A program made the translations under genes and the position numbers. The notes beneath the pieces were generated by a model. The model did not search any database and was not told where the DNA came from. It saw nothing but the letters and a program-made list of their open reading frames with translations. Shown piece after piece: positions 6,305 through 64,000 of a stretch of 64,000 nucleotides of DNA (position 1 is the first letter of the stretch; each line of letters opens with the position of its first letter). This stretch comes from Comamonadaceae bacterium (GTDB lineage Bacteria > Pseudomonadota > Gammaproteobacteria > Burkholderiales > Burkholderiaceae_C): contig CANCER010000015.1 of NCBI GenBank assembly GCA_947375135.1, positions 7,142-71,141 of the forward strand, written 5' to 3'.

Positions 6305-6394
6305 GGAAGCTTGGCCGAGCGGTTTAAGGCACCGGTCTTGAAAACCGGCGAGGATGTGAGTCCTCCGTGAGTTCGAATCTCACAGCTTCCGCCA
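6305..6394 (+). tRNA. tRNA-Ser (anticodon TGA)
   Basis: GGAAGCT...AGCTTCC acceptor stem, CCGGT-CTTGAAA-ACCGG anticodon arm, long variable arm, GTTCGAATC T-loop, GCCA end. Confidence 0.96.
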
Positions 6395-20121: not shown

Positions 20122-21066
20122 CTATTGCACCAAAGGCGAGTCGGCAGCATCGAGTTCAATCCCTTCCACCAGCGCCTGCCCGACCAGCAGTGTCATGTAC
20201 TGGTGCAGGGCCTTGGCACGCGATTGCATGGCCAGTTGCGCCGCCACGCGTTCGCACACTTCGTCAAACGCCAGGGTCTTGCCCTCACGCCGTTCCAGCA
20301 CGTCGATGATGTGAAAGCCAAAGCGGGTATGGATGAGACGCGGCTGCACGCCCAGGCCCACCGGCACCTCGGATTGGAAGAACAGGGTGGTGGCCAGTTC
20401 CGGCGCGCAGTCCTGCGGACCGACCCAACCCAGGTCGCCGCCCTGGGTGCTGGTGGGGCAGTTTGACAGCTCAGCTGCCAGTTTGCCGAACAGATCCACC
20501 GGCACGTTTTTGCCCAAGAGGCTGATCAGGGCCTTGTCGGCATGCACGCTCAAAGCCTGCACATTCACGCCCGGTGTCACGGCGAACAGGATGTGGCGCA
20601 GATGCACGGCCTGGCCGACGACGTACTGGGTTTTGCGGGCGTCATAGTAGCGCTGGCATTCTTCGTCTGTAGGCGCAGGCACTTGCACGGCGGCGTCCAC
20701 CATGGACTCCAGCACGGCGCGTTCGGCTTCATCCAGCTCCGGCGCTTCCAGCACGTTCTCGCGCGGCAGCAGACCGGCGGTGACGGCCTGTTGGCGCAGC
20801 AGTTCGGTGTAGGCCAGTTCGCGCAAGGACTCTTCATCCGGGCGCAGGCCTGCAATGTGCAGGTTGATGCCGTTGATGGAGGCGATAGTCTCGGGCGCGA
20901 TGTTCGCACTGCTTTGCTTGAAGGCAGCCGCGTCGTTGGCAGTTGGCGTGCCTATGGACGGATAGGCGTTCTTGTTGCCCTGTTGGGCAACACTGGCAGC
21001 CTTGGAGCCGCAGCCGCAAGTGCCGCCGCCGCCACAACCGTGGCTATTGGTTTGCGTTGTGTTCAT
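20122..21066 (-). CDS. Parvulin/PpiC-type peptidyl-prolyl isomerase associated with the nar operon
   Basis: HLRHIL, SNCPT..GGDLG, TRFGFHII; Cys/Gly-rich N-terminus. Confidence 0.9.
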   Translation of the reverse strand: MNTTQTNSHGCGGGGTCGCGSKAASVAQQGNKNAYPSIGTPTANDAAAFKQSSANIAPETIASINGINLHIAGLRPDEESLRELAYTELLRQQAVTAGLLPRENVLEAPELDEAERAVLESMVDAAVQVPAPTDEECQRYYDARKTQYVVGQAVHLRHILFAVTPGVNVQALSVHADKALISLLGKNVPVDLFGKLAAELSNCPTSTQGGDLGWVGPQDCAPELATTLFFQSEVPVGLGVQPRLIHTRFGFHIIDVLERREGKTLAFDEVCERVAAQLAMQSRAKALHQYMTLLVGQALVEGIELDAADSPLVQ

Positions 21067-21141: not shown

Positions 21142-21401
21142 CCGAGGTCAGCGGGGTAGATGTTTCCGTCCGTGTCCCCCGCCCGCTTAAGCGGGCTCCT
21201 CCTTTACCTCCCGGAAACATCCACCCCACTGCCCTCGGCAGCCTGCACGGTTGGTGCGCAATAAATTGGGGGCCCGACACCGATGTGCTCCAAATATGTT
21301 GGCTGGCGCAGGACGGCGTGGCACTCAGCGACGGTAGGTAAAGGAGGAGCCCCGCAGGGGCGGGGGACACGGACGTCGCTGAGTGCCACGTCGGCCTGCG
21401 T
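21142..21401. repeat. Inverted doublet of ~97-nt structured palindromic units (A1 21142-21238, A2 21306-21401)
   Basis: Conserved core TCCGTGTCCCCC-GCCC..GGGC-TCCTCCTTTACCT closed by ~27-bp stems; homologous to 28438-28692 and 63226-63321. Confidence 0.9.
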
Positions 21402-21507
21402 CCCGCGTGTCTTGATCCCAACGCCGGGGGACACGAACCGAGATGAGTACCACGGCGGCGTGCGTCCAAAAGTGTCTTCACACAGGCGTGCCATGGTCAG
21501 ACAAGGT

Positions 21508-22233
21508 TCAGCGTGCGTTGCGACTCAGGGGCTCGCGCTCCACCAATCCCATGCGACGGCTGCGCACCAACTGGTGCGGGCGAATCACATAGGCCAGGGT
21601 GCCAAAGCCACTCCACACATGCACCAGCCGCGTGAACGGGAACACCAGGAAGATGCTCATGCCCAGGAACATGTGCAGCTTGAAAACCCAGCTGGCCTCA
21701 TTCAGCAGCTCGGGCGCACCAGCGCGGAAGGTGACGATGTGCTGGGCCCATTCGGCCAGCTTGATCATCATGCTGCCGTCCAGATGCTCGGCCGACAAGG
21801 GAATGGTCGCCAGACCCAGGGCGAGCTGCAGCCACAACAGCACCAGCAGCACGATGTCGCTGGTCTTGGAGTTGATGCGGATGCGCTCGTCGCTCAAGCG
21901 GCGGTGCAACAACAGGCTCACACCGATAAAACCCAGCACACCAAACGCACCACCCGACACCATGGCCATGATCTGCTTGTTGCCCGCGCTGATGAAAGGC
22001 TCGTAGATGAAGTGCGGCGTCAACATGCCCACGGTGTGACCGCCCAGCAGGAACAGCACGCCGATGTGGAACAGGTTGCTGCCCCAGCGCAACTGGCCCC
22101 GGCGCAACATCTCCGAAGAGTCGCTCTTCCAGGTGTACTGGTCGCGATCGAAGCGGACCAGGCTGCCCAGCAGGAAGATGGTCAGACAGATGTACGGGTA
22201 GTAACCGAACAAGAGGTTGTCGAGGTAAGTCAT
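21508..22233 (-). CDS. narI: Respiratory nitrate reductase gamma subunit
   Basis: RFDRDQYTWKSDSS, LFHIG, PFTRLVHVWS. Confidence 0.97.
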   Translation of the reverse strand: MTYLDNLLFGYYPYICLTIFLLGSLVRFDRDQYTWKSDSSEMLRRGQLRWGSNLFHIGVLFLLGGHTVGMLTPHFIYEPFISAGNKQIMAMVSGGAFGVLGFIGVSLLLHRRLSDERIRINSKTSDIVLLVLLWLQLALGLATIPLSAEHLDGSMMIKLAEWAQHIVTFRAGAPELLNEASWVFKLHMFLGMSIFLVFPFTRLVHVWSGFGTLAYVIRPHQLVRSRRMGLVEREPLSRNAR

Positions 22234-22970
22234 ATGCGTGCTCCTTGGGCATGGGCTTCTGGTGCTTTCTGGCCTTTGGCAAAAACGGAGGCGGCGGTAG
22301 CGGAAGCAACCGGCGCCGGGGTCTTGCGAACAATGTGAATCGGCTGGGCTTCACCCGGCTTGGACTGGCCCTTGGTCGAGCAGCCATCAAAGGCTTCCGG
22401 CTCCTGCCAGACATCGTCCATGGCCTCATCGGCCACGATGGCCACGGCCTGCACGCGCTGGCCGCAGAGTTCCAGCACAGCGGCGATGGGCGCGGCATAG
22501 GGGCTGCCGCGTTGCAGCAGCGCACTGAAGACAGCGGTGAGGATGTGGGCCATCTCGCCCATGAACTCCATCGCCAGTTTGGGCGGCTGGGTGGAGGCGA
22601 ACTCCAGCACCACGCACAAATGGTCGGGCAGCTCTTCGGGCGCCATCAGCATGCCGGCCTTCTCGTAGGTCTGCACCAGATCCACCATCGCCGGGCCGCG
22701 CTCGCGCGAATCGCCATGGATGTGCTCGAACATGTGCAGCGAGGTGGCGCGTCCGCGGTCGAAGGTTTCGACGTAACGCGCTTCCACCTCCATGGGGTCC
22801 AGGCGTGCGAGCTCTGCCGCAAAGGCGTGCAGCTCTTCGCGGCGTGCAGAGGGTATTACGGCCTCCTTGTCGATGGCCTGCAGCAGCTCGGGCAGATGGC
22901 TGCGCAGTTCAGCGTCCGGGTAGGCCATCAGCAGGGCCAAGGCACGCAGGGAATAACGGTTGTCTTTCAT
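22230..22970 (-). CDS. narJ: Nitrate reductase molybdenum cofactor assembly chaperone
   Basis: YVETFDRGRATSLHMFEH.HGDSRERGPAM, ELPDHL. Confidence 0.96.
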   Translation of the reverse strand: MKDNRYSLRALALLMAYPDAELRSHLPELLQAIDKEAVIPSARREELHAFAAELARLDPMEVEARYVETFDRGRATSLHMFEHIHGDSRERGPAMVDLVQTYEKAGMLMAPEELPDHLCVVLEFASTQPPKLAMEFMGEMAHILTAVFSALLQRGSPYAAPIAAVLELCGQRVQAVAIVADEAMDDVWQEPEAFDGCSTKGQSKPGEAQPIHIVRKTPAPVASATAASVFAKGQKAPEAHAQGARI

Positions 22971-22982
22971 GGCGTGCTTTCT

Positions 22983-24515
22983 TTAGACGTAAGACTTGAT
23001 GGGAATGGTGCGTGGCTTGGAGCCGCCAAACAGACTGGTCTCTGACGATCCGTCCGAGCACCCATTGCCGAACGAAAAGCCGCAGCCGCCGCGCAAATCA
23101 AACGCGTTTTCGGCGTACTCACGGTGGCTGGTCGGAATCACAAAGCGGTCTTCGTAGTTGGCGATGGCCATGATCTGGTACATCTCTTCCACCTGGGCCA
23201 CAGTCAAACCGGTCTGCTCCAGCACAGCCAGGTTTTGCTCCTGGTCCACATGCTTGCTGCGCTGGTAGGCGCGCATGGCCAGCATGCGTTCCAGGGCGCG
23301 CACCACGGGGGCGGTGTCACCGGCAGTCAGCAGGTTGGCCAGGTACTGCACGGGAATGCGCATCTGGGCCAGGTCCGGAATCTCGCCGTTCACGCCGATG
23401 TGTCCGGCATTCGCTGCACTCGTGATGGGCGAGAGCGGCGGCACATACCAGACCATGGGTAACGTCCGGTACTCGGGGTGCAGCGGCAGGGCCACCTTCC
23501 AGTCCACGGCCATCTTGTAGACCGGGCTGTTGCGTGCGCCTATCAGCCAGGTCTCGGGGATGCCGTCCAGGCGGGCCTGCGCAATCACCTTGGGGTCGTT
23601 GGGGTTGAGGAAGATGTCCAGTTGCGCCTGGTACAGGTCCTTCTCGTCCACCACACTCGCCGCTTCGGCAATGCGGTCTGCGTCGTACAGCACCACGCCC
23701 AGGTAGCGGATGCGGCCCACGCAGGTCTCGGAGCAGACGGTGGGTTGACCGGCTTCGATGCGCGGGTAGCAGAAGATGCACTTCTCGGCCTTGCCGCTTT
23801 TCCAGTTGTAGTAAATCTTCTTGTAGGGGCAGCCGGAGACGCACATGCGCCAGCCGCGGCACTTGTCCTGGTCGATCAGGACAATGCCGTCGTCTTCGCG
23901 CTTGTAGATCGAGCCGCTCGGGCACGATGCCACGCAGGCCGGGTTCAGGCAATGCTCGCACAGGCGCGGCAGGTACATCATGAAGGTGTTTTCAAACTGG
24001 CCGACCATGTCCTTTTGCACCTGGTCGAAGTTGGCCAGGTTGGCGTCCTTGCTGCGCTTGCTGAATTCACCACCCAGGATTTCTTCCCAGTTCGGGCCCC
24101 AAGTGATCTTCTCCATGCGCTTTCCGGTGATCAGGCTGCGCGGGCGTGCTGTGGGCGCGTGCTTGACCTCGGGCGCCGACTGCAGGTGGTCGTAGTCGAA
24201 GGTGTAGGGCTCGTAGTAGTCGTCAATCTGCGGCATGTTGGGGTTGGAGAAGATGCGCATGAGCAACTTCCACTTGCCGCCCTGCTTGGGCTCAATCGAA
24301 CCGTCGGCCTTGCGGACCCAGCCTCCGTTCCACTTGTCCTGGTTTTCCCACTCCTTGGGGTAGCCGATACCGGGCTTGGTCTCGACGTTGTTGAACCAGG
24401 CGTATTCCATGCCGGGGCGGCTGGTCCAGACGTTTTTGCAGGTGACCGAACAGGTGTGGCAACCAATGCATTTGTCCAGGTTCAGCACCATGGCGATTTG
24501 GGCGCGTATTTTCAT
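22983..24515 (-). CDS. narH: Respiratory nitrate reductase beta subunit
   Basis: CIGCHTCSVTCK and further Fe-S cluster motifs. Confidence 0.98.
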   Translation of the reverse strand: MKIRAQIAMVLNLDKCIGCHTCSVTCKNVWTSRPGMEYAWFNNVETKPGIGYPKEWENQDKWNGGWVRKADGSIEPKQGGKWKLLMRIFSNPNMPQIDDYYEPYTFDYDHLQSAPEVKHAPTARPRSLITGKRMEKITWGPNWEEILGGEFSKRSKDANLANFDQVQKDMVGQFENTFMMYLPRLCEHCLNPACVASCPSGSIYKREDDGIVLIDQDKCRGWRMCVSGCPYKKIYYNWKSGKAEKCIFCYPRIEAGQPTVCSETCVGRIRYLGVVLYDADRIAEAASVVDEKDLYQAQLDIFLNPNDPKVIAQARLDGIPETWLIGARNSPVYKMAVDWKVALPLHPEYRTLPMVWYVPPLSPITSAANAGHIGVNGEIPDLAQMRIPVQYLANLLTAGDTAPVVRALERMLAMRAYQRSKHVDQEQNLAVLEQTGLTVAQVEEMYQIMAIANYEDRFVIPTSHREYAENAFDLRGGCGFSFGNGCSDGSSETSLFGGSKPRTIPIKSYV

Positions 24516-24527
24516 GTTGTGTTCTCC

Positions 24528-27500
24528 TTATGCCTGGATAGTGGGAGCGGCTTCGCCGTCCAGCCAGTCGACCTTGCGCATCTTGCGCACCACCACAAAT
24601 TCATCGCGGTTGGTGCCAATGGTTCCGTAGTAGTTGAAGCCGTAGCTGAACTGCGCGTAGCCGCCGATCATGTGCGTGGGCTTGGTCACGATGCGGGTGA
24701 CCGAGTTGTGGATGCCGCCGCGTGTGCCGGTGATTTCTGCACCGGGTGTGTTGATGATTTTTTCCTGCGCGTGGTACATCATCACCATGCCCACCTTCAC
24801 CCGCTGGCTGACCACCGCACGGGCCGCGATGGCACCGTTGATGTTGAAGAGTTCGACCCAGTCGTTGTCCTCAATGCCGGCCACCCGGGCGTCGTCTTCA
24901 CTCAGCCAGATCACCGGGCCACCGCGATTGAGCGTGAGCATCATCAGGTTGTCGGTGTAGGTGCTGTGAATGCCCCACTTCTGGTGCGGCGTGATGAAGT
25001 TCAAGGAAATTTCCTTGTTGCCATTGGGCCGTCGTTCCATGATGCCGGTGACGGCCTTCAGGTCCACCGGTGGGCGGTAACTGGTCAACCCCTCGCCAAA
25101 CGCGATCATCCAGGGGTGGTCCAGGTAGAAGTGCTGACGACCGGTCAGGGTGCGCCATGGGATCAGCTCATGCACATTGGTGTAACCGGCGTTGTAGCTC
25201 ACGGTCTCGCTCTCAATGCCGCTCCACGTCGGTGAAGAAATAATCTTGCGCGGCTGGGCCTGGATGTCGCGAAAGCGGATCTTCTCGTCTTCGCGGTGGA
25301 TGGCCAGGTGCGTGTGGTCGCGCCCTGTGATCTTGCCCAGGGCTTCCCAGGCCTTCACGGCCACATGGCCGTTGGTCTCGGGGGCGAGTTGCAGCACCAC
25401 TTCGCAGGCATCAATGTCGCTTTCGATCTTGGCCATGCCCTTGGTGACACCCTCGGCATGCACCTTGCCGTTGAGTTCGGCGAGTTGCTGGACCTCGACC
25501 TTGGTGTCCCAGCCAATGCCCTTGCCGCCGTTGCCGACTTTTTCCAAGAGCGGGCCCAGAGCCGTGAAGCGCTTGAAGGTGTTGGGGTAATCGCGCTCGA
25601 TCACCGCGATGCTGGGCGCCGTCTTGCCGGGAATCAGATCGCAGTCGCCGCGCTTCCAGTCGCTCACGCCAAAGGGCTGGGCCAACTCAGAAGGTGTGTC
25701 GTGCATCAACGGTGTCAACACCACTTCTTTTTCCACACCCAGGTGGCCGACGCAGACCTTGCTATAGGCCTCGGCAAAGCCCTTGTAAATATCCCAGTCG
25801 CTCTTGCTCTGCCAGGCCGGGTCCACCGCGGTCGAGAGTGGGTGGATGAAGGGATGCATGTCGCTGGTATTCAGATCGTTCTTCTCATACCAGGTGGCCG
25901 TGGGCAGCACGATGTCGGAATACAGGCAGGTGGTGCTCATGCGGAAGTCCAGCGTGACCAAGAGGTCCAGCTTGCCTTCCGGCGCCTTGTCGTGCCATTG
26001 CACCTCAGCGGGCTTGGCATCGTCTACGCCCAAATCTTTGCCCTGCACACCGTGGGTGGTGCCCAGCAAATGCTTCATGAAATATTCATGGCCCTTGCCG
26101 GAGGAACCCAAGAGGTTGGAGCGCCAGACAAACATATTGCGCGGCCAGTTGGCGGGGTGGTCCGGGTCTTCGCAGCTCATCTTCAGCGAGCCGTCCTTGA
26201 TCGACTTCACCACATAGTCTTTGGGGTCCATGCCGGCGGCCGTCGCGTCCTTGACCACTTGGAAGGAATTGGTCTGCAACTGCGGCGCGCTGGGCAACCA
26301 GCCCATGCGCTCGGCGCGCACGTTGTAGTCGATCAGGCTGCCGCCGTATTTCGATTTGTCGGCCAGGGGTGACAGGATTTCTTCCACACCCAGCTTCTCG
26401 TAGCGCCACTGGTCGGTGTGCGCGTAGAAGAAGCTGGTGCTGTTCATCTGCCGGGGCGGGCGCACCCAGTCGAGTGCGAAGGCCAGCGCGGTCCAGCCGG
26501 TTTGCGGGCGGAGTTTTTCCTGCCCCACATAGTGGGCCCAGCCGCCGCCGCTCTTGCCGATGCAGCCGCACATCATCAGCATGTTGATGATGCCGCGGTA
26601 GTTCATGTCGCTGTGGTACCAGTGGTTCATGGCCGCGCCGATGATGACCATGGACTTGCCCTTGGTCTTGTCGGCGTTGTCGGCAAACTGGCGCGCCACG
26701 GCAATGATCTGGTCGCGCTTGACGCCGGTGATCTTCTCTTGCCAGGCGGGGGTGTAGGGCGTGTCGTCGTCGTAACTGGTAGCGGCGTTTTCACCCTCAA
26801 TGCCACGGGCCACGCCGTAGTTGGCCACCGTCAGGTCGAACACGGTGGCGATCAGCGCATAGCGCTCAACGCCTGCCTTGCCCAGCTTGATGCGACGCAC
26901 CGGCACCTTGCGCACCAGGATGTCGTCAATGGCGGCGCCCTGCTTGTTGGCGCTGAAGTTGGGCGTGTCGATGCCACCGAAATACGGGAAGCCGACATCG
27001 CCGATTTCGTAGTCGGCGGCCACACCTCCGGTGGAGGCTTCCATCAAACTCAGCTTGAGTTTGACGTCGCCATCATGGCGGGCTTCCTTGTCTTCCAGAT
27101 TCCACTTGCCCACGTCGGTGCGGTCTTCCGCGCCCCAACGGAAACCAATGGAGCCGTTCGGCACCACGATCTTGTCGGACTCGTCGATGGCCAATGTCTT
27201 CCACTCGGGGTTGTTGGCCTGGCCGAGCTTGCCATTGAAGTCGCTGGCACGCAGATAGGCGCCGGGCACCAGCACCGTGCGGCCATCGGGCAGCTTGCGC
27301 TCTTCCAGCTGCACCAGGTTCGGCATGTCGGTGAAGCGGCGCACGTAGTCGTCAAAGTACGCGCTGCGTTTGTCGAAGTAAAACTCTTTCAGGATCACAT
27401 GGCCCATGGCCATGGCGACGGCCGCGTCAGTGCCCTGCTTGGGGTGCATCCACAGATCGGCCAGCTTGCTGATCTCGGCATAGTCGGGCGTGATGGCCAC

Positions 27501-28334
27501 GGTCTTGGCGCCCTTGTAGCGCACCTCGGTGAAGAAGTGGGCGTCGGGCGTGCGGGTCTGGGGCACGTTGGAACCCCAGGCGATGATGAAGGTGGAGTTG
27601 TACCAATCGGCCGACTCGGGCACGTCGGTCTGCTCACCCCAGACCTGGGGCGAGGCCGGAGGCAGGTCGCAGTACCAGTCGTAAAAGCTCATGCACACGC
27701 CGCCGATCAGGCTGAGGTAACGGCTGCCCGCGGCATAGCTGACCATGGACATGGCGGGGATGGGCGAGAAGCCGATCACGCGGTCCGGGCCCCATTTCTT
27801 GGCGGTGTAAACATTGGCGGCGGCGATGAGCTGGTTGACCTCATCCCAGCTGCTGCGCACAAAGCCGCCGAGGCCACGTTGCTTGACCCATTGCGAACGG
27901 GCGTCGTTGTTTTCGACAATCAAGGTCCAGGCGTTAACCGGGTCTTTGGCCACGGCCAGCGCGGCACGCCACTGCGTGAGCAGACGGGCGCGGATCATGG
28001 GGTATTTGACGCGGTTGGCACTGTACAAATACCAGCTGTAGGAGGCGCCACGCGCACAGCCACGGGGTTCGTGGTTGGGCAGATCGGCGCGGGTACGGGG
28101 GTAGTCGGTCTGCTGGGTTTCCCAGGTGACGATGCCGCCCTTGACGTAAATTTTCCACGAGCAGGAGCCCGTGCAGTTCACGCCGTGGGTGCTGCGCACG
28201 ATTTTGTCGTGGGCCCAGCGGTCGCGGTAGGCGTCTTCCCAGGTGCGGTCTTCACCGGTGGTGAGGCCGTGGCCGTCGGAAAAGCTTTCCTTCGGTGCCG
28301 AGAAGTGGCTCAGGCGGTCCAGAAAATGGCTCAT
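24528..28334 (-). CDS. narG: Respiratory nitrate reductase alpha subunit
   Basis: RSTHGVNCTGSCSW, SFYDWYCDLPP, 1268 aa. Confidence 0.99.
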   Translation of the reverse strand: MSHFLDRLSHFSAPKESFSDGHGLTTGEDRTWEDAYRDRWAHDKIVRSTHGVNCTGSCSWKIYVKGGIVTWETQQTDYPRTRADLPNHEPRGCARGASYSWYLYSANRVKYPMIRARLLTQWRAALAVAKDPVNAWTLIVENNDARSQWVKQRGLGGFVRSSWDEVNQLIAAANVYTAKKWGPDRVIGFSPIPAMSMVSYAAGSRYLSLIGGVCMSFYDWYCDLPPASPQVWGEQTDVPESADWYNSTFIIAWGSNVPQTRTPDAHFFTEVRYKGAKTVAITPDYAEISKLADLWMHPKQGTDAAVAMAMGHVILKEFYFDKRSAYFDDYVRRFTDMPNLVQLEERKLPDGRTVLVPGAYLRASDFNGKLGQANNPEWKTLAIDESDKIVVPNGSIGFRWGAEDRTDVGKWNLEDKEARHDGDVKLKLSLMEASTGGVAADYEIGDVGFPYFGGIDTPNFSANKQGAAIDDILVRKVPVRRIKLGKAGVERYALIATVFDLTVANYGVARGIEGENAATSYDDDTPYTPAWQEKITGVKRDQIIAVARQFADNADKTKGKSMVIIGAAMNHWYHSDMNYRGIINMLMMCGCIGKSGGGWAHYVGQEKLRPQTGWTALAFALDWVRPPRQMNSTSFFYAHTDQWRYEKLGVEEILSPLADKSKYGGSLIDYNVRAERMGWLPSAPQLQTNSFQVVKDATAAGMDPKDYVVKSIKDGSLKMSCEDPDHPANWPRNMFVWRSNLLGSSGKGHEYFMKHLLGTTHGVQGKDLGVDDAKPAEVQWHDKAPEGKLDLLVTLDFRMSTTCLYSDIVLPTATWYEKNDLNTSDMHPFIHPLSTAVDPAWQSKSDWDIYKGFAEAYSKVCVGHLGVEKEVVLTPLMHDTPSELAQPFGVSDWKRGDCDLIPGKTAPSIAVIERDYPNTFKRFTALGPLLEKVGNGGKGIGWDTKVEVQQLAELNGKVHAEGVTKGMAKIESDIDACEVVLQLAPETNGHVAVKAWEALGKITGRDHTHLAIHREDEKIRFRDIQAQPRKIISSPTWSGIESETVSYNAGYTNVHELIPWRTLTGRQHFYLDHPWMIAFGEGLTSYRPPVDLKAVTGIMERRPNGNKEISLNFITPHQKWGIHSTYTDNLMMLTLNRGGPVIWLSEDDARVAGIEDNDWVELFNINGAIAARAVVSQRVKVGMVMMYHAQEKIINTPGAEITGTRGGIHNSVTRIVTKPTHMIGGYAQFSYGFNYYGTIGTNRDEFVVVRKMRKVDWLDGEAAPTIQA

Positions 28335-28437
28335 TGTTTACTCCAAGTGAAATACGTTTTGGGTGCCAACATTTGTTTGTTAACTCTTGTGGTGGCCTGC
28401 TTGCGTGCCCAGGTTTGTGTGCCTGCTTTTGTGGTGG

Positions 28438-28692
28438 CCGAGGTCAGCGGGGTAGATGTTTCCGTCCGTGTCCCCCGCCCGCTGAAGCGGGCTCCTCCTT
28501 TACCTACCGGAAACATCCACCCCACTGCCCTCGGCTGCGAACAGCGTTGGTTCGCGATGACTAAAAACATTTGTGTGCCCACCGTGCTTGCCGACGCAGG
28601 ACGGTGTGGCGCTCCGCTTCGGTAGGTAAAGGAGGAGCCCACGCAGTGGGCGGGGGACACGGACGAAGCGGAGTGCCACGCCGGCCTGTGTC
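28438..28692. repeat. Second inverted doublet of the structured unit (B1 28438-28534, B2 28593-28692)
   Basis: B1 nearly identical to A1; B2 differs from A2 by compensatory stem changes. Confidence 0.9.
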
Positions 28693-28767
28693 CAGAAGAG
28701 GCAGAGCCCGGAAGTGCCTTCATTCCCATATGCATGAACCCCGAAGTAAGCGATGACATAAGTGCCT

Positions 28768-30414
28768 TCATGGGTTCTTGAACTCAGAAGTCGGGCGCAG
28801 ATAAAACCACCAGTTCAGCACCAGACACAGCGCATAAAAAATGGCGAATCCATACATCGCAATCTGCGGCGTACCAGCCTTGATCTGCGAACCAATCACC
28901 ACTGGCGCGATGAACGCGCCGTAGGCTGCAATGGCCGAAGTCCATCCCAACACCGGGCCGGCTTGGGTACGATCAAAGATCACACCGATGGTGCGGAAGG
29001 TGGAACCGTTGCCGATACCGCTGGCCGTGAACAACACAATGAACAGCGTCATGAACGGCATGAAATACTGCTCAGGTGTGGCCGAACCATAGGCCAGCAA
29101 CATCACATAACCCACGGCAACAGATGCCAGCACCATCACGGCCGAGATCGCCTGCGTGACGATGGAGCCGCCGATCTTGTCGGAAATCCAGCCGCCAATG
29201 GGCCGCACCAGCGCGCCCACAAAGGGGCCGATCCAGGCATAGGTCAGGGCCGAGGGAGCATGGGGATTCTTTAGCGTGTGCTGCATGATGCCGGCCGCAT
29301 CGGGCACATGGCTGATGCCGAAGATCACCGTGATGGACAGGGGCAGCGCCATCGAGAAACCGATGAAGGAACCGAAGGTTACGATGTACAGCAGGGTCAG
29401 CGACCAGGTGTGCTTGTTGTGAAAAATGGCGAACTGCTTGGCGATGTTTTCCTTCATCGGCCCGAAGGCGGCCAGGCGCATGACCATCAGCGTGCTGAAC
29501 ACGATCAGCGGCATGGCAATCCACATGTTCAGGATGCCCAGACCGGTGGGTGCGGGCAGGTACAGATACAGACCCAGGCCGGCGGGAACAAACGACAGGG
29601 TGTAGAGCCAGATGATTTTCAGGAAGGCGGCAATCGTGCCGCCACTGTCCGGCGTCACCGTCTTCAGGTTGTTCATGCCGAAGAAGCACAGCACAGACAA
29701 GGGAATCAGCGACAGCAGCCAGGCAAAGCCGGCGTTCTGAATCCAGGTGGGGGTGCCGGCCGCGATCTTGCCCAGAATCCAGCCGCTGTCCTTCACCAGC
29801 ATGGTGGATTCGCCACCCAGGCCGCCGAACAGGCTCATGGTCATCACCAGCGGGATCACGATCTGCATGGTGGTGACGCCGAAGTTGCCCAGTCCCGCAT
29901 TCAGACCGAGCGCCGTGCCCTGCAGGCGCTTGGGAAAGAAGGTGCTGATGTTGGACATGGAGCTGGCAAAGTTGCCGCCGCCCACGCCCGACCACAGGGC
30001 CATCAACTGGAAGGTCCACAGCGGCCACTCGGGGTGCTGCAGCACGATGCCGGTGCCCATGGCCGGGGCCAGCAGCATGGCCGTGGTGAGGAAGATGGTG
30101 TTGCGTCCACCGGCCACCCGGATCAGGAAGGAAGCCGGGATGCGCATGGTGGCACCGGCCAGACCGGCGATGGCCGTGAGCGAGAACAGCTCGGCCTGGG
30201 TAAAGGGGAAACCCAGGTTGAGCATCTGCACCGTGATGATGCCCCACATGCCCCAGATGGCGAAGCCGCACAGGAGTGCCGGCACCGAGATCCAGAGGTT
30301 GCGGTGGGCGATTTGCTTGCCGGTGCTTTCCCAGAACCTGTCGTCCTCGGGGCGCCAGTCGGCAATGTCAGCGCCACTGGCGGCGCCGGGGGCAATGGTG
30401 GTTTGGGTGCTCAT
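28768..30414 (-). CDS. narK: NarK-family nitrate/nitrite MFS transporter (NarK2-like)
   Basis: WRPEDDRFW, GGGNFASSMSNI, GIGNGSTF. Confidence 0.93.
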   Translation of the reverse strand: MSTQTTIAPGAASGADIADWRPEDDRFWESTGKQIAHRNLWISVPALLCGFAIWGMWGIITVQMLNLGFPFTQAELFSLTAIAGLAGATMRIPASFLIRVAGGRNTIFLTTAMLLAPAMGTGIVLQHPEWPLWTFQLMALWSGVGGGNFASSMSNISTFFPKRLQGTALGLNAGLGNFGVTTMQIVIPLVMTMSLFGGLGGESTMLVKDSGWILGKIAAGTPTWIQNAGFAWLLSLIPLSVLCFFGMNNLKTVTPDSGGTIAAFLKIIWLYTLSFVPAGLGLYLYLPAPTGLGILNMWIAMPLIVFSTLMVMRLAAFGPMKENIAKQFAIFHNKHTWSLTLLYIVTFGSFIGFSMALPLSITVIFGISHVPDAAGIMQHTLKNPHAPSALTYAWIGPFVGALVRPIGGWISDKIGGSIVTQAISAVMVLASVAVGYVMLLAYGSATPEQYFMPFMTLFIVLFTASGIGNGSTFRTIGVIFDRTQAGPVLGWTSAIAAYGAFIAPVVIGSQIKAGTPQIAMYGFAIFYALCLVLNWWFYLRPTSEFKNP

Positions 30415-30448
30415 AAGCGTCCTTCGCAAGGGGAAATGGGATTTGTAG

Positions 30449-31717
30449 TTAGGCGGTGGCGGGCAGCGAACGGTCATGCTTGCCCATGACCTGGCGGCTG
30501 CGCACCTCGGTCCAGTACATCCAGATCAGCGACACCCAGACCACGCCATACATAAGCATGAAAGCGCTGGAGCGGATGCCTGTGATATCCATCAAAGCGC
30601 CAAACAGAATGGGCAAAATAAATCCGCCCATGCCGCCGGCCAGGCCGACGATGCCGCTGATGGTGCCGATGTTCTGGCTGTAGTCGTCGCTGATGTACTT
30701 GAAGACGCTGGCCTTGCCAAAGGCAAAGGCAATGCCCAGGATGAACATCAGGGCGGTGAACACATACACGTTCAGGCCGATGTGGAAGGTGCTGGGGCCG
30801 CTCACCGTCATCACGGTGAAATCGGTCTGCGGATAGCTCAGCAAAAACAGGCAGACCCAGCTCACCCACAGCACCCACCAGGTCACGCTGTGCGCGCCGT
30901 ATTTGTCCGACAGAATGCCGCCAAAGGCGCGCAGCACACCGCCGGGCAGCGAGAAGCAGGCGGCCAGCAGGGCAGCGATGCGGATGTCCAGGCCGAACTC
31001 GCCGACGTAGTACTGCACCATCCACAAGGCGAGGGCCACATAGCCGCCAAACACAATGCTGTAGTACTGGCAGTACTTCACCACCTTGGGGTCTTTGAGG
31101 GCCTTGAGCTGGTCGCGGAAGGTCAGGGTGTGGGGCACCAGGTGCTTGGGGTCGCTGTAGCTAAAGGTCCAGAACAGCACCAGCGTGCCCAGCATGATGG
31201 CCGCATACACATGGGGCACCATGGTCCAGCCAAAGGCCACCAGCAGCACGGGGGCGAGAAACTTGTTGACGGCCGAGCCGGAATTTCCGGCGCCATAAAT
31301 GCCCATGGCCGTGCCCTGTTTGTTCTTGGGGAACCAGCGCGCCACATAGGGCGTGCCCACCGAGAACGAACCACCGGCCAGGCCGACGAACAGACCGATG
31401 GTGAGGAAGTGCCAGTATTCGGTGGCGTAGCCCATCATCCAGATGGCGGGCACGGTGATGGCCATCAGCGTGGCCATCACGATGCGGCCACCAAAGCGGT
31501 CGGTCCAGATGCCCAGCGGCACGCGAATCAGGGAACCGGTGAGCACCGGCATGGCGGTGAGCAGGCCGAACTGGGTCGAGTTGAGGTTCAGCATCTTCTT
31601 GATCGGGATACCGATCACGCCAAACATCATCCAGACCATGAAGCACACGGTAAAGGCCAAGGTGCTGACGATCAACACCGACCAGGCTTGTTTTGAATTT
31701 TTGATTTCCGTAGCCAT
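30449..31717 (-). CDS. narK: NarK-family nitrate/nitrite MFS transporter (NarK1-like)
   Basis: PVLTGSLIRVPLG, GGSFSVG, GAGNSG. Confidence 0.92.
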   Translation of the reverse strand: MATEIKNSKQAWSVLIVSTLAFTVCFMVWMMFGVIGIPIKKMLNLNSTQFGLLTAMPVLTGSLIRVPLGIWTDRFGGRIVMATLMAITVPAIWMMGYATEYWHFLTIGLFVGLAGGSFSVGTPYVARWFPKNKQGTAMGIYGAGNSGSAVNKFLAPVLLVAFGWTMVPHVYAAIMLGTLVLFWTFSYSDPKHLVPHTLTFRDQLKALKDPKVVKYCQYYSIVFGGYVALALWMVQYYVGEFGLDIRIAALLAACFSLPGGVLRAFGGILSDKYGAHSVTWWVLWVSWVCLFLLSYPQTDFTVMTVSGPSTFHIGLNVYVFTALMFILGIAFAFGKASVFKYISDDYSQNIGTISGIVGLAGGMGGFILPILFGALMDITGIRSSAFMLMYGVVWVSLIWMYWTEVRSRQVMGKHDRSLPATA

Positions 31718-62606: not shown

Positions 62607-64000
62607 TCAAGCCTCCCGATACAAAGCAAAGGGCAGCGGCGCATAGTCCACGCCGTGTTCGAGCAACTGCTTGTTGCTCATGTATTTGGCCGGGGCAAAC
62701 ACCAGGTGGCGCTTGCCGTCGCCCTTGCCGCCCTGCTTGGCCTGGCCCCAGGCGGCAAACTCCTTGGCGCGGCTCAGGGTCAGGGCTGCGTCGGGCGATT
62801 TCAAAAATGACAGCTCGGGCGCATACACCAGCCAGACATGCGCGTCGCTGGCCTCGCCCAGGTACCACGGGGGCGCGCCCTTGGGGCTTGGCAACAAGGT
62901 GCCGCCGGTGGCGGTGTAAAACAGCCAGGCACCCAGCGCGTCGAAGGCGGGAAGCACTTCGCCACTGAGCAGTTTTTCCACGTCCAGCGGTTCGCCCAGC
63001 GTGCAATAGGTGAACTCGCCGCCCAGGCCATCGGCCATTTCGGACAAGCGCTTTTCGCCTTCCACCCGTAGCACGCCGTCTTTGAGTTCGACGTTGATTT
63101 TGTGGAAGCGCTTGCTTTTTGGGGGGGCACTGGCGGTGTTGGCGGTGTTGGCGGTGTTGGCGGTGTTGGCGGTGTTGGCGGTGTTGGCGGTGTTGGCGGT
63201 GTTGGCGGTGTTGGCAGGGCCCGCTGGCTGGGTGGGCGGCAGGCGGTTCTGCTCCGTGTCCCCCGCCCGCTGCGCGGGCTCCTCCTTAACCTGCGCAGAA
63301 CCGTCTGCCGCCCATCCGTCCAGCTCCATTTGTGCCGCTGCTTCCACAAAGCCTTCCTGCACCTTGATGGCTTCCACCTTGGCTAGCCATTGGTCGGCTT
63401 TTTTGAACTGGGTGAAGGTGATTTTTTCTTCGAGCAAGGTCTCGCGCTGCGTGCCCTGCCAGGCGTAACCCATGATGGCACGACGTACGCGCTCGGCGGT
63501 CAGCTTGTCGGCATAGTCTTCGCCTTCAACCAGAATGAACTTGCGCCGCCCCCCGTCCTTGGCATTGGCCTTGAGCACGGCATGGGCGGTGGTGCCGGAG
63601 CCAGCGAAGCTGTCCAGGATGAGGGAATCACCATGCGTGGCCAGATCAAGAATTCGACCAAGAAGACGCGTAGGTTTTGGATAGTCGAACGGGTTGGCTG
63701 CACCAAGAATTTCGTTGATTTCCTTTTTTGCCTCTTGGTTGTGACCGACCTCCTCGTTGCTCCACCAGGTCCAGCCACTCACTCCCTGACTTTCGTCCAG
63801 ATAGGTTTTAATTCGCGGCTTCGCATTTCCTGAAACGCCAAACCATATCTTGCCCTCACGCCTGAGCCGCAAAAACTCAGGCTCCAGCATGGACCAGCAC
63901 CGTCCAGGTGGCGCGGCCACCAGTTCTCCGCTTGGTAACGCTACTTTGTATTGCTGGTCTTTTCGCTTGGTTGCGTCCGGATTTTGGGCCGTCATGTCGG
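62607..64000 (-). CDS. Type III modification (Mod)-like N6-adenine DNA methyltransferase, C-terminal part; start lies beyond the window
   Basis: FDYPKPTRL, ILDSFAGSGTTAHAV, KFILVE..YAD..TAERV. Confidence 0.9.
   Translation of the reverse strand, partial: DMTAQNPDATKRKDQQYKVALPSGELVAAPPGRCWSMLEPEFLRLRREGKIWFGVSGNAKPRIKTYLDESQGVSGWTWWSNEEVGHNQEAKKEINEILGAANPFDYPKPTRLLGRILDLATHGDSLILDSFAGSGTTAHAVLKANAKDGGRRKFILVEGEDYADKLTAERVRRAIMGYAWQGTQRETLLEEKITFTQFKKADQWLAKVEAIKVQEGFVEAAAQMELDGWAADGSAQVKEEPAQRAGDTEQNRLPPTQPAGPANTANTANTANTANTANTANTANTANTASAPPKSKRFHKINVELKDGVLRVEGEKRLSEMADGLGGEFTYCTLGEPLDVEKLLSGEVLPAFDALGAWLFYTATGGTLLPSPKGAPPWYLGEASDAHVWLVYAPELSFLKSPDAALTLSRAKEFAAWGQAKQGGKGDGKRHLVFAPAKYMSNKQLLEHGVDYAPLPFALYREA
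63132..63212. repeat. Tandem 9-bp repeat (GGCGGTGTT)x9 encoding (ANT)9 inside mod
   Basis: Counted directly in the sequence and in the translation. Confidence 0.95.
63226..63321. repeat. Fifth copy of the structured palindromic unit, in-frame within mod
   Basis: TCCGTGTCCCCC-GCCCGC-tgc-GCGGGC-TCCTCCTTAACCT core with a different ~27-bp closing stem. Confidence 0.88.

Follow-up and report, generated by a model that had tools for sequence, protein, structure and literature searches.

The BIME organisation, as defined in PMC8266576, and the REP and REPIN elements outlined there and in PMC6006769 are among the closest described parallels of the repeat reported here. Like those elements, it has many intergenic and occasional in-frame copies, comes in doublets whose two unlike members keep a fixed, mutually inverted orientation on either side of a variable linker, forms tandem arrays of doublets and keeps its structure on one strand. 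It differs from REP and BIME, as these sources present them, in that its units measure 97-102 nt where theirs are palindromes of 20-50 nt, its conserved part is a central internal loop and not the foot of the hairpin, its stem is free in sequence and fixed in length, and it has no linked TnpA-REP (RAYT) gene. We analysed a 64,000-nt stretch of contig CANCER010000015.1 from assembly GCA_947375135.1 (Comamonadaceae bacterium), called the window below, its genome being labelled G000; a reading made from the sequence alone had described four units of this repeat there, in two doublets around narGHJI. We put at about even chances the full account that we favour, namely that the repeat is a dispersed, BIME-like, non-autonomous mobile element of ~100 nt, selected as a hairpin of single-stranded DNA (ssDNA), with a loop predicted to be aptamer-like and to take up adenine in at least its inner pocket.

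The four units are 97-100 nt long with outer stems of 27-29 bp. They lie where the sequence-only reading had placed them, between a peptidylprolyl isomerase (PPIase) gene and narI and between narG and narK, with the invariant strands and inner hairpins that it quoted (Table 1). Their folding z-scores on both strands range from -6.0 to -8.3, and none of 200 shuffles folded equally well. From the outside in, a unit consists of an outer stem (25-30 bp), a junction of 4 bp (Watson-Crick or G.A), the invariant loop RTNAA-GGAGGA / GGGGGA-CA and an inner hairpin that varies; covariation of the four junction pairs, which adjoin the loop, runs through Watson-Crick as well as G.A combinations.

The 4.2-Mb genome G000 gave 49 matches to a loose core pattern, against 0-2 in three shuffled genomes. 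A second pattern gave 56 matches, of which 52 have an outer stem and are counted as units, and four without one were dropped as chance; for this initial set of 52, mismatches were tolerated evenly over the core. Forty-two of them form 21 divergent doublets, mostly pairing two unlike stem types. Most units are intergenic, often shortly past a stop codon, and the adjoining genes are unrelated metabolic and transport genes. Across the genus, the exact core pattern was present in 107 of 124 genomes (1,932 matches, 0-62 per genome; reversed-pattern control, 0). At the family level it occurred in 42 of 151 genomes, and in a wider sample of the class in 6 of 251, three of these being chance-like single rows; one other family had 13. 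GTDB holds an estimated ~3,200 stretches with the exact core pattern, the named matches including Rhodoferax, Polaromonas, Hydrogenophaga, Curvibacter, Roseateles, Ideonella and Herbaspirillum, and metagenomes hold ~6,700 stretches with a wider pattern. A plasmid search with the core pattern gave no match; of 13 pattern matches in viral contigs, 12 had no outer stem and one was a true unit at a contig end. The repeat is widespread among related freshwater and soil bacteria. Doublets do stand on both sides of narGHJI, as first described, but with 52 units genome-wide this bracketing is incidental, and a fifth unit and a half unit in the window had been missed.

Mismatches in the stems point to the strand on which the fold is maintained. 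Among units detected by core only, and read on the purine-rich strand, G.T outnumbers A.C by 74 to 4 in 46 units of G000, by 277 to 27 in 156 units from GTDB and by 296 to 36 in 168 units from metagenomes. The G-U-type mismatches first seen in the four units thus hold genome-wide. Homogenisation of the arms alone would not produce such an asymmetry, which indicates that the fold is kept on the purine strand only and upholds the proposal of selection on a single-strand structure. A neutral repeat, in which template switching between inverted repeats keeps the arms complementary and covariation is merely mutational, would agree with flips of the core between arms at orthologous sites, which show that arm-to-arm events take place. 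Template switching cannot, however, yield the G.T over A.C asymmetry, the fixed stem length or the non-complementary purine covariation described below; the asymmetry already largely refutes this explanation, and we give it hardly any credence.

The purine-strand fold could be that of an RNA, acting as an mRNA processing or stability element that sets nar subunit ratios, as a protein-binding RNA or as a small ribozyme. The G.T (in RNA, G.U) bias would suit such a role, as would the mostly intergenic positions, often just past a stop codon, the presence of units at one carboxylase-subunit intergenic site in several genera, and the AAGGAGG in the loop. The inner loops are of another kind: among 300 units, 190 are cGNAg and 38 cANAg, with four GNRA and no UUCG. 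GCGNAGC is an extra-stable DNA mini-hairpin, and the RNA counterpart tested in PMC13037366 was much less stable; given these DNA-type triloops, the folded molecule, and with it the selected structure, is likely to be DNA. Single units between co-directional genes show no purine-sense bias, 13 placing the purine strand in the mRNA and 21 its complement (rough gene calls), and at the same codon of nasA and of an AraC regulator gene the core occurs in either orientation. The absence of an Rfam match also speaks against an RNA. A role of the AAGGAGG as ribosome binding site finds no support: more than 100 nt separate the cores from the next start codon, and a GGAG of its own precedes the narG start. 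An element setting nar stoichiometry is likewise unsupported, the narK-narG spacer being empty in four of 11 genomes and other units adjoining unrelated metabolic genes. Three RNA runs contained 5-7% of unit words, in runs that hold contigs only and mostly other organisms. Triloops and strand counts together leave RNA or ribozyme readings disfavoured, and we judge a role as RNA improbable.

Comparison of orthologous sites revealed gain, loss and flipping of units. Among the 11 genomes in which narK and narG are adjacent, the spacer holds a doublet in six, a single unit in one and no unit in four, and the narI-PPIase spacer is empty in G011 and carries one unit in G009. Because the half unit beside the PPIase-narI doublet resembles this single G009 unit, the doublet has likely inserted into, or taken over part of, an older copy; new copies are often found in or against older ones. 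The same spacer in G012 (L129) holds a different palindromic repeat, and may be a general landing spot. Adjacent unit pairs are divergent in 143 of 152 cases, G103 has tandem arrays of 2-3 doublets, and units lie between two carboxylase subunit genes in several genera. The nar locus is one of many sites at which the repeat has landed.

Of the 52 units, four lie within genes and keep the reading frame (the mutL linker, the AraC regulator gene, nasA and a methylase gene in the window), and orthologues without the unit exist. Thirty mutL orthologues comprise 19 with an intact core, two with a disrupted core, one cut by a contig end and eight with none. In many species the MutL linker unit (L226-L255) is translated as a peptide of the QVKEEPA-RAGDTEQ type, and the hairpin arms still covary within coding sequence. 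At nasA and the AraC gene, the position (to the codon) and the arms are shared with close relatives in which the core points the other way. The fifth unit of the window, in the methylase gene, has A.C as its purine-strand stem mismatches, as expected after a recent core flip. The nasA unit is flanked by a direct repeat of 5-7 bp, a candidate target-site duplication, but shorter alleles may be deletions, one of them retaining an arm remnant. An origin of the outer arms by copying from the target was dropped, as arms are shared between loci. Separately, at L029:2500-3500 a divergent unit pair encloses a vapBC-like toxin-antitoxin pair (named from translation), as if a doublet had carried cargo. 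Presence and absence at orthologous sites, divergent pairing and the tandem doublet arrays bear out the suggestion of a REP/REPIN-like mobile unit, and we consider it quite probable that the units are a mobile repeat selected as ssDNA.

Outer stems measure 25-30 bp in 374 of 474 units, with a mode of 29, though the stem sequences are unrelated; this fixed length suggests a factor that measures from the core. A linked RAYT or HUH transposase, which the sequence-only reading had proposed to look for, was not found: no stem-bearing unit flanks the 24 Y1 loci inspected, and Y1_Tnp genes of G000 and ten repeat-rich genomes have no flanking units. A Pfam scan of 55 proteins adjoining G000 units detected no transposase or nuclease besides the Y1 control, searches for DUF559 and GIY-YIG in five genomes returned only weak matches or long open frames, clustered open reading frames (ORFs) beside units were host genes only, and between spaced units lay host genes and, once, a toxin-antitoxin pair. 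At the hairpin foot (0-2 nt 5') of the 52 units, the REP tetranucleotide GTAG was absent from either strand, and GTGG (three units) and CGTC (one) occurred on the pyrimidine strand only.

The only Y1 transposase of G000 (L001:1468-2166, C41) has no units; by the classification given in PMC6006769 it is of the TIRYT type (TnpA-Y1 subclass 2.1). This single-copy gene might mobilise the units in trans: the GGGGACAC of the right strand fits the consensus GGGGWSAS reported in PMC3733652 and PMC6006769 (chance ~0.006 per 40-nt core), and the gene is present in 120 of the 124 genus genomes. It is, however, equally present in unit-free genomes and does not track unit copy number, its catalytic tyrosine is replaced in G000, G019 and G009 (44, 32 and 34 core matches), no unit flanks the 24 Y1 loci inspected, and swapped and A/T variants of the core interrupt the GGGG run, so that mobilisation by TIRYT seems most improbable to us. 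TIRtron terminal inverted repeats (TIRs), as described in PMC3733652, resemble the repeat in having the GGGGWSAS motif and in that some are families of dispersed dimers; they differ in that the units do not flank a TIRYT gene and carry the motif inside the hairpin loop. The TIRYT gene is single-copy in nearly all genus genomes (L322-L351), and in one clade (G000, G019, G009, G191, G269) the tyrosine is replaced and the gene intact; it looks domesticated.

No named family could be assigned, in agreement with the sequence-only reading. Rfam covariance models gave no match at the units at gathering threshold, and four loci drew only weak miRNA hairpin matches far below threshold (E up to 1). BRE (Hot et al. 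2011, PMC3110155), the only published repeat from the same host group that came up, is described at about 90 nt as intergenic and sometimes coding, and has in common with the present repeat only its inner hairpin, which is of the type GCCCGC-A-CAGCGGGC and flanked by runs of G. BRE copies, as reported there, are head-to-tail tandem and lack a GGAGGA strand. Both BRE supplementary files contained no GGACACG or complement, and the listed BRE differs outside the inner hairpin; identity with BRE was rejected because the core words are absent from this published list. A literature search covering mostly papers outside subscription found neither a description of the repeat nor a natural counterpart of the aptamer discussed next. 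The main texts of three structured-RNA surveys (PMC11109978, PMC8632094, PMC5737381) do not name these hosts, and their supplements could hold the motif.

The invariant loop resembles that of the ATP/adenosine DNA aptamer of Huizenga and Szostak. The aptamer 27-mer listed in Table 1 of PMC8468449 consists of GGGGGA, a G...C-closed hairpin and GGAGGA. A swapped natural form, found in 96 rows (about 5% of units), equals this 12-nt loop letter for letter, and the common natural form (GGAGGA/GGGGGA) equals it with the strands exchanged; because the aptamer's two binding sites are symmetric, as PMC5737652 reports, the common form is the same loop seen from the other side. In the aptamer structure described in PMC11481096, the G5.A23 pair is sheared and the G6.G21 pair reverse Hoogsteen, AMP is bound by G22 and G9, and the linkers G7 and A20 are flexible. 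Across 498 distinct units, each of the ten pocket positions is conserved in 489-498, and the two positions that vary are those equal to G7 and A20. The inner closing pair is Watson-Crick in 488 of the 498 (G-C 485, A-T 3).

Both linker positions and the equivalent of G6.G21 covary, as counted directly from rows. At the linkers, left G is accompanied by right A in 96 of 103 cases (the others being 4 G, 2 T and 1 C) and left A by right A in only 7 of 139 (both hand counts, the latter on 150 listed genus rows). An independent metagenome set (n=158) gave AG 127, GA 22, AA 5, GG 0 and other 4, and the A/G swap is also present at one fixed mutL site. The second covariation was suggested by three odd units and then tested across the genus. 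Forty-three rows have a left base other than G at the G6.G21 equivalent: nine lack an inner hairpin and are chance, two have C and 32 have A, and this left A is matched by a right T in 27 of the 32, from 13 genomes (hand count). Left G with a partner other than G was seen in eight rows (4 T, 3 C, 1 A) beside 1,932 G/G units, and one-step Watson-Crick variants are rare (C-G 2, G-C 3). The double change outnumbers every single change, which together with the rarity of Watson-Crick variants makes it likely that these bases form a non-Watson-Crick pair; A.T and G.G are both able to form reverse Hoogsteen pairs. K-turn, loop E and mirror-repeat triplex structures were dropped, the covarying bases being unlike (A with G) and not alike.

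A two-tier G-quadruplex (GG-A-GG / GG-G-GG) sandwiched by two duplex stems is another conceivable fold for the core, in which four GG tracts are invariant and the variable bases fall precisely at the one-base loops. Two of its would-be quartet guanines change jointly to A and T in the 27 units, though, and G/G loops, which should fold equally well, are depleted. A quadruplex model was reportedly the first proposed for the ATP aptamer itself and was later replaced by a zipper structure from nuclear magnetic resonance (NMR), which also counts against it. We hold the quadruplex to be very doubtful.

The aptamer-type fold has to be weighed against a mobile DNA repeat whose core is a rigid purine-mismatch zipper read by a protein, binding no adenine and resembling the aptamer because G-rich strands have few ways to zip. 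That alternative would account for the missing outer closing pair and the extra invariant RTNAA/CA module, for the depletion of G/G linkers that the aptamer allows and for the G.A-rich junction helix, and the two central covariations fit any register that opposes these bases. It must treat as incidental a 12/12 identity with a motif that PMC5737652 and PMC12674096 report as recurring in independent ATP selections, and the inner site retains all aptamer features, including the G-C/A-T closing pair. We find the protein-read zipper rather unlikely.

Several observations weigh against the account that we favour. Where the aptamer closes its outer side with the pair T4-A24, the unit has A opposite C plus the RTNAA/CA module, and loss of the outer stem abolishes aptamer binding, according to PMC5737652. 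The aptamer consensus GGGGGA...GG(A/G)GGA given in PMC12674096 permits G/G linkers, which nature depletes (4/103; 0/158). The G8.G19 equivalent has no A.T swap (about nine true variant units in 17 rows, five of them G-C), and the central covariations equally fit a pocket-less stack of five purine pairs. Core conservation is partly built in, as the search patterns fixed most core positions, and the counts overstate independent events, as copies are related by descent and copying. The match was noticed post hoc; by rough sums its chance is ~0.002 allowing 1,000 known motifs and ~0.01 given G-rich purine strands. The G.T bias is compatible with RNA as well as DNA, and no mobilising gene, and no Y1 match, was found near 317 unit loci.

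Taking these points together, we incline slightly towards an aptamer-type fold for the loop, on the strength of its identity with the selected sequence and of the two covariations. The shared features are the 12-nt loop and the pair that closes it on the inner side, variation confined to the linker bases, covariation at the G6.G21 pair and a molecule that is likely DNA; unlike the aptamer as published, the repeat is natural and genomic, lies within a 29-bp hairpin, has a strand-exchanged common form, carries RTNAA/CA in place of the outer closing pair, avoids G/G and is only predicted to bind. Binding of adenine nucleotide by unit DNA in vitro is a prediction that we consider somewhat less likely than not to hold. 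The affinities of the aptamer for ATP are modest (133 and 498 micromolar in PMC7609719), which makes a sensing role in the cell speculative, and we think it unlikely at best that adenine binding is used in vivo. The unit's own invariant adenines would be an equally good candidate ligand as a free nucleotide.

The mechanism that we propose for the ssDNA hairpin begins with the stem, junction, loop and inner hairpin described above, whose fold is maintained on the purine strand only. Judging from the loop type, the folded molecule would be DNA exposed in replication or transcription. The loop would then zip up, with sheared G.A pairs at its ends, G.G pairs at two positions and two recognition guanines left unpaired, as its identity with the aptamer and the two covariations suggest. 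Adenine might enter the pockets, either as free ATP, AMP or adenosine or as the unit's invariant loop-adjacent adenines. A trans-acting nicking or strand-transfer enzyme would bind the core and act near the stem foot about 29 bp away; an enzyme measuring this distance would account for stems of fixed length, doublets that diverge, tandem arrays and insertions into older copies.

Table 1. Repeat units and neighbouring genes in the window (window positions)
Feature	Positions	Strand	Remarks
PPIase-like gene	20122-21066	-	context
A-type unit, PPIase-narI doublet	21142-21238	-	27-bp outer stem; core 21175-21202
Variable linker of doublet 1	21239-21304		edges are short imperfect inverted repeats, found in most doublets
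B-type unit, PPIase-narI doublet	21305-21402	+	29-bp outer stem; core 21343-21367
Older B-type unit, right half only	21422-21467	+	similar to the lone unit at the same site in G009
narG, narH, narJ, narI	21508-28334	-	context only
A-type unit, narG-narK doublet	28437-28535	-	28-bp outer stem; core 28471-28498
Variable linker of doublet 2	28536-28592		between the narG-narK units
B-type unit, narG-narK doublet	28593-28692	+	29-bp outer stem; core 28631-28657
narK-family transporter	28768-30477	-	context
Fifth unit, single, third stem subfamily	63223-63324	-	in frame within DNA methylase ORF 62607-63890 (-)

The methylase ORF hosting the fifth unit looks like a type III restriction-modification Mod gene, and directly after the unit it carries a 9-bp tandem array of about 10 copies that reads Ala-Asn-Thr in frame (window 63113-63233). 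The word GAAGTG(A/C)C occurs in 1-3 copies just past B-type stems (e.g. window 28693-28720) and also beside the nasA unit; it may be an element end or a scar of repeated insertions. Four of the 21 doublet linkers in G000 (C3:182243, C10:44890, C11:72552, C19:67761) contain three tandem copies of a word of 6-8 bp that differs each time. Another G-rich repeat, two GGGGGA runs flanking an A-rich spacer, is present in three copies in G000 (C14:38263, C21:55166 and C21:13645, as searched-strand offsets), perhaps as insertion-sequence ends. Elsewhere in the window, Rfam matched a 5' ureB sRNA motif (2421-2703, -) and a tRNA (6305-6391, +).

Small-molecule-binding aptamers occur in cells as RNA riboswitches; we know of no selected aptamer of this kind that has a natural counterpart in DNA, and the literature search gave none either. 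Here, a widespread repeat carries at its invariant centre the core of the best-studied DNA aptamer, and its covariation agrees with the solved non-canonical pairs. It is possible, if on balance improbable, that thousands of hairpins in Burkholderiales are a natural DNA aptamer by convergence, predicted to bind an adenine nucleotide or a target-DNA adenine when single-stranded and to use that binding to fold, be recognised or spread. Even without binding, the repeat family apparently represents a class of BIME-like elements that has not been described before, some of whose copies lie in frame in mutL and other genes, and whose logic is inverted with respect to BIME: a fixed central loop, free stem sequence and fixed stem length. 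In its thousands of natural variants, a non-canonical DNA fold has in effect already been scanned by mutation.

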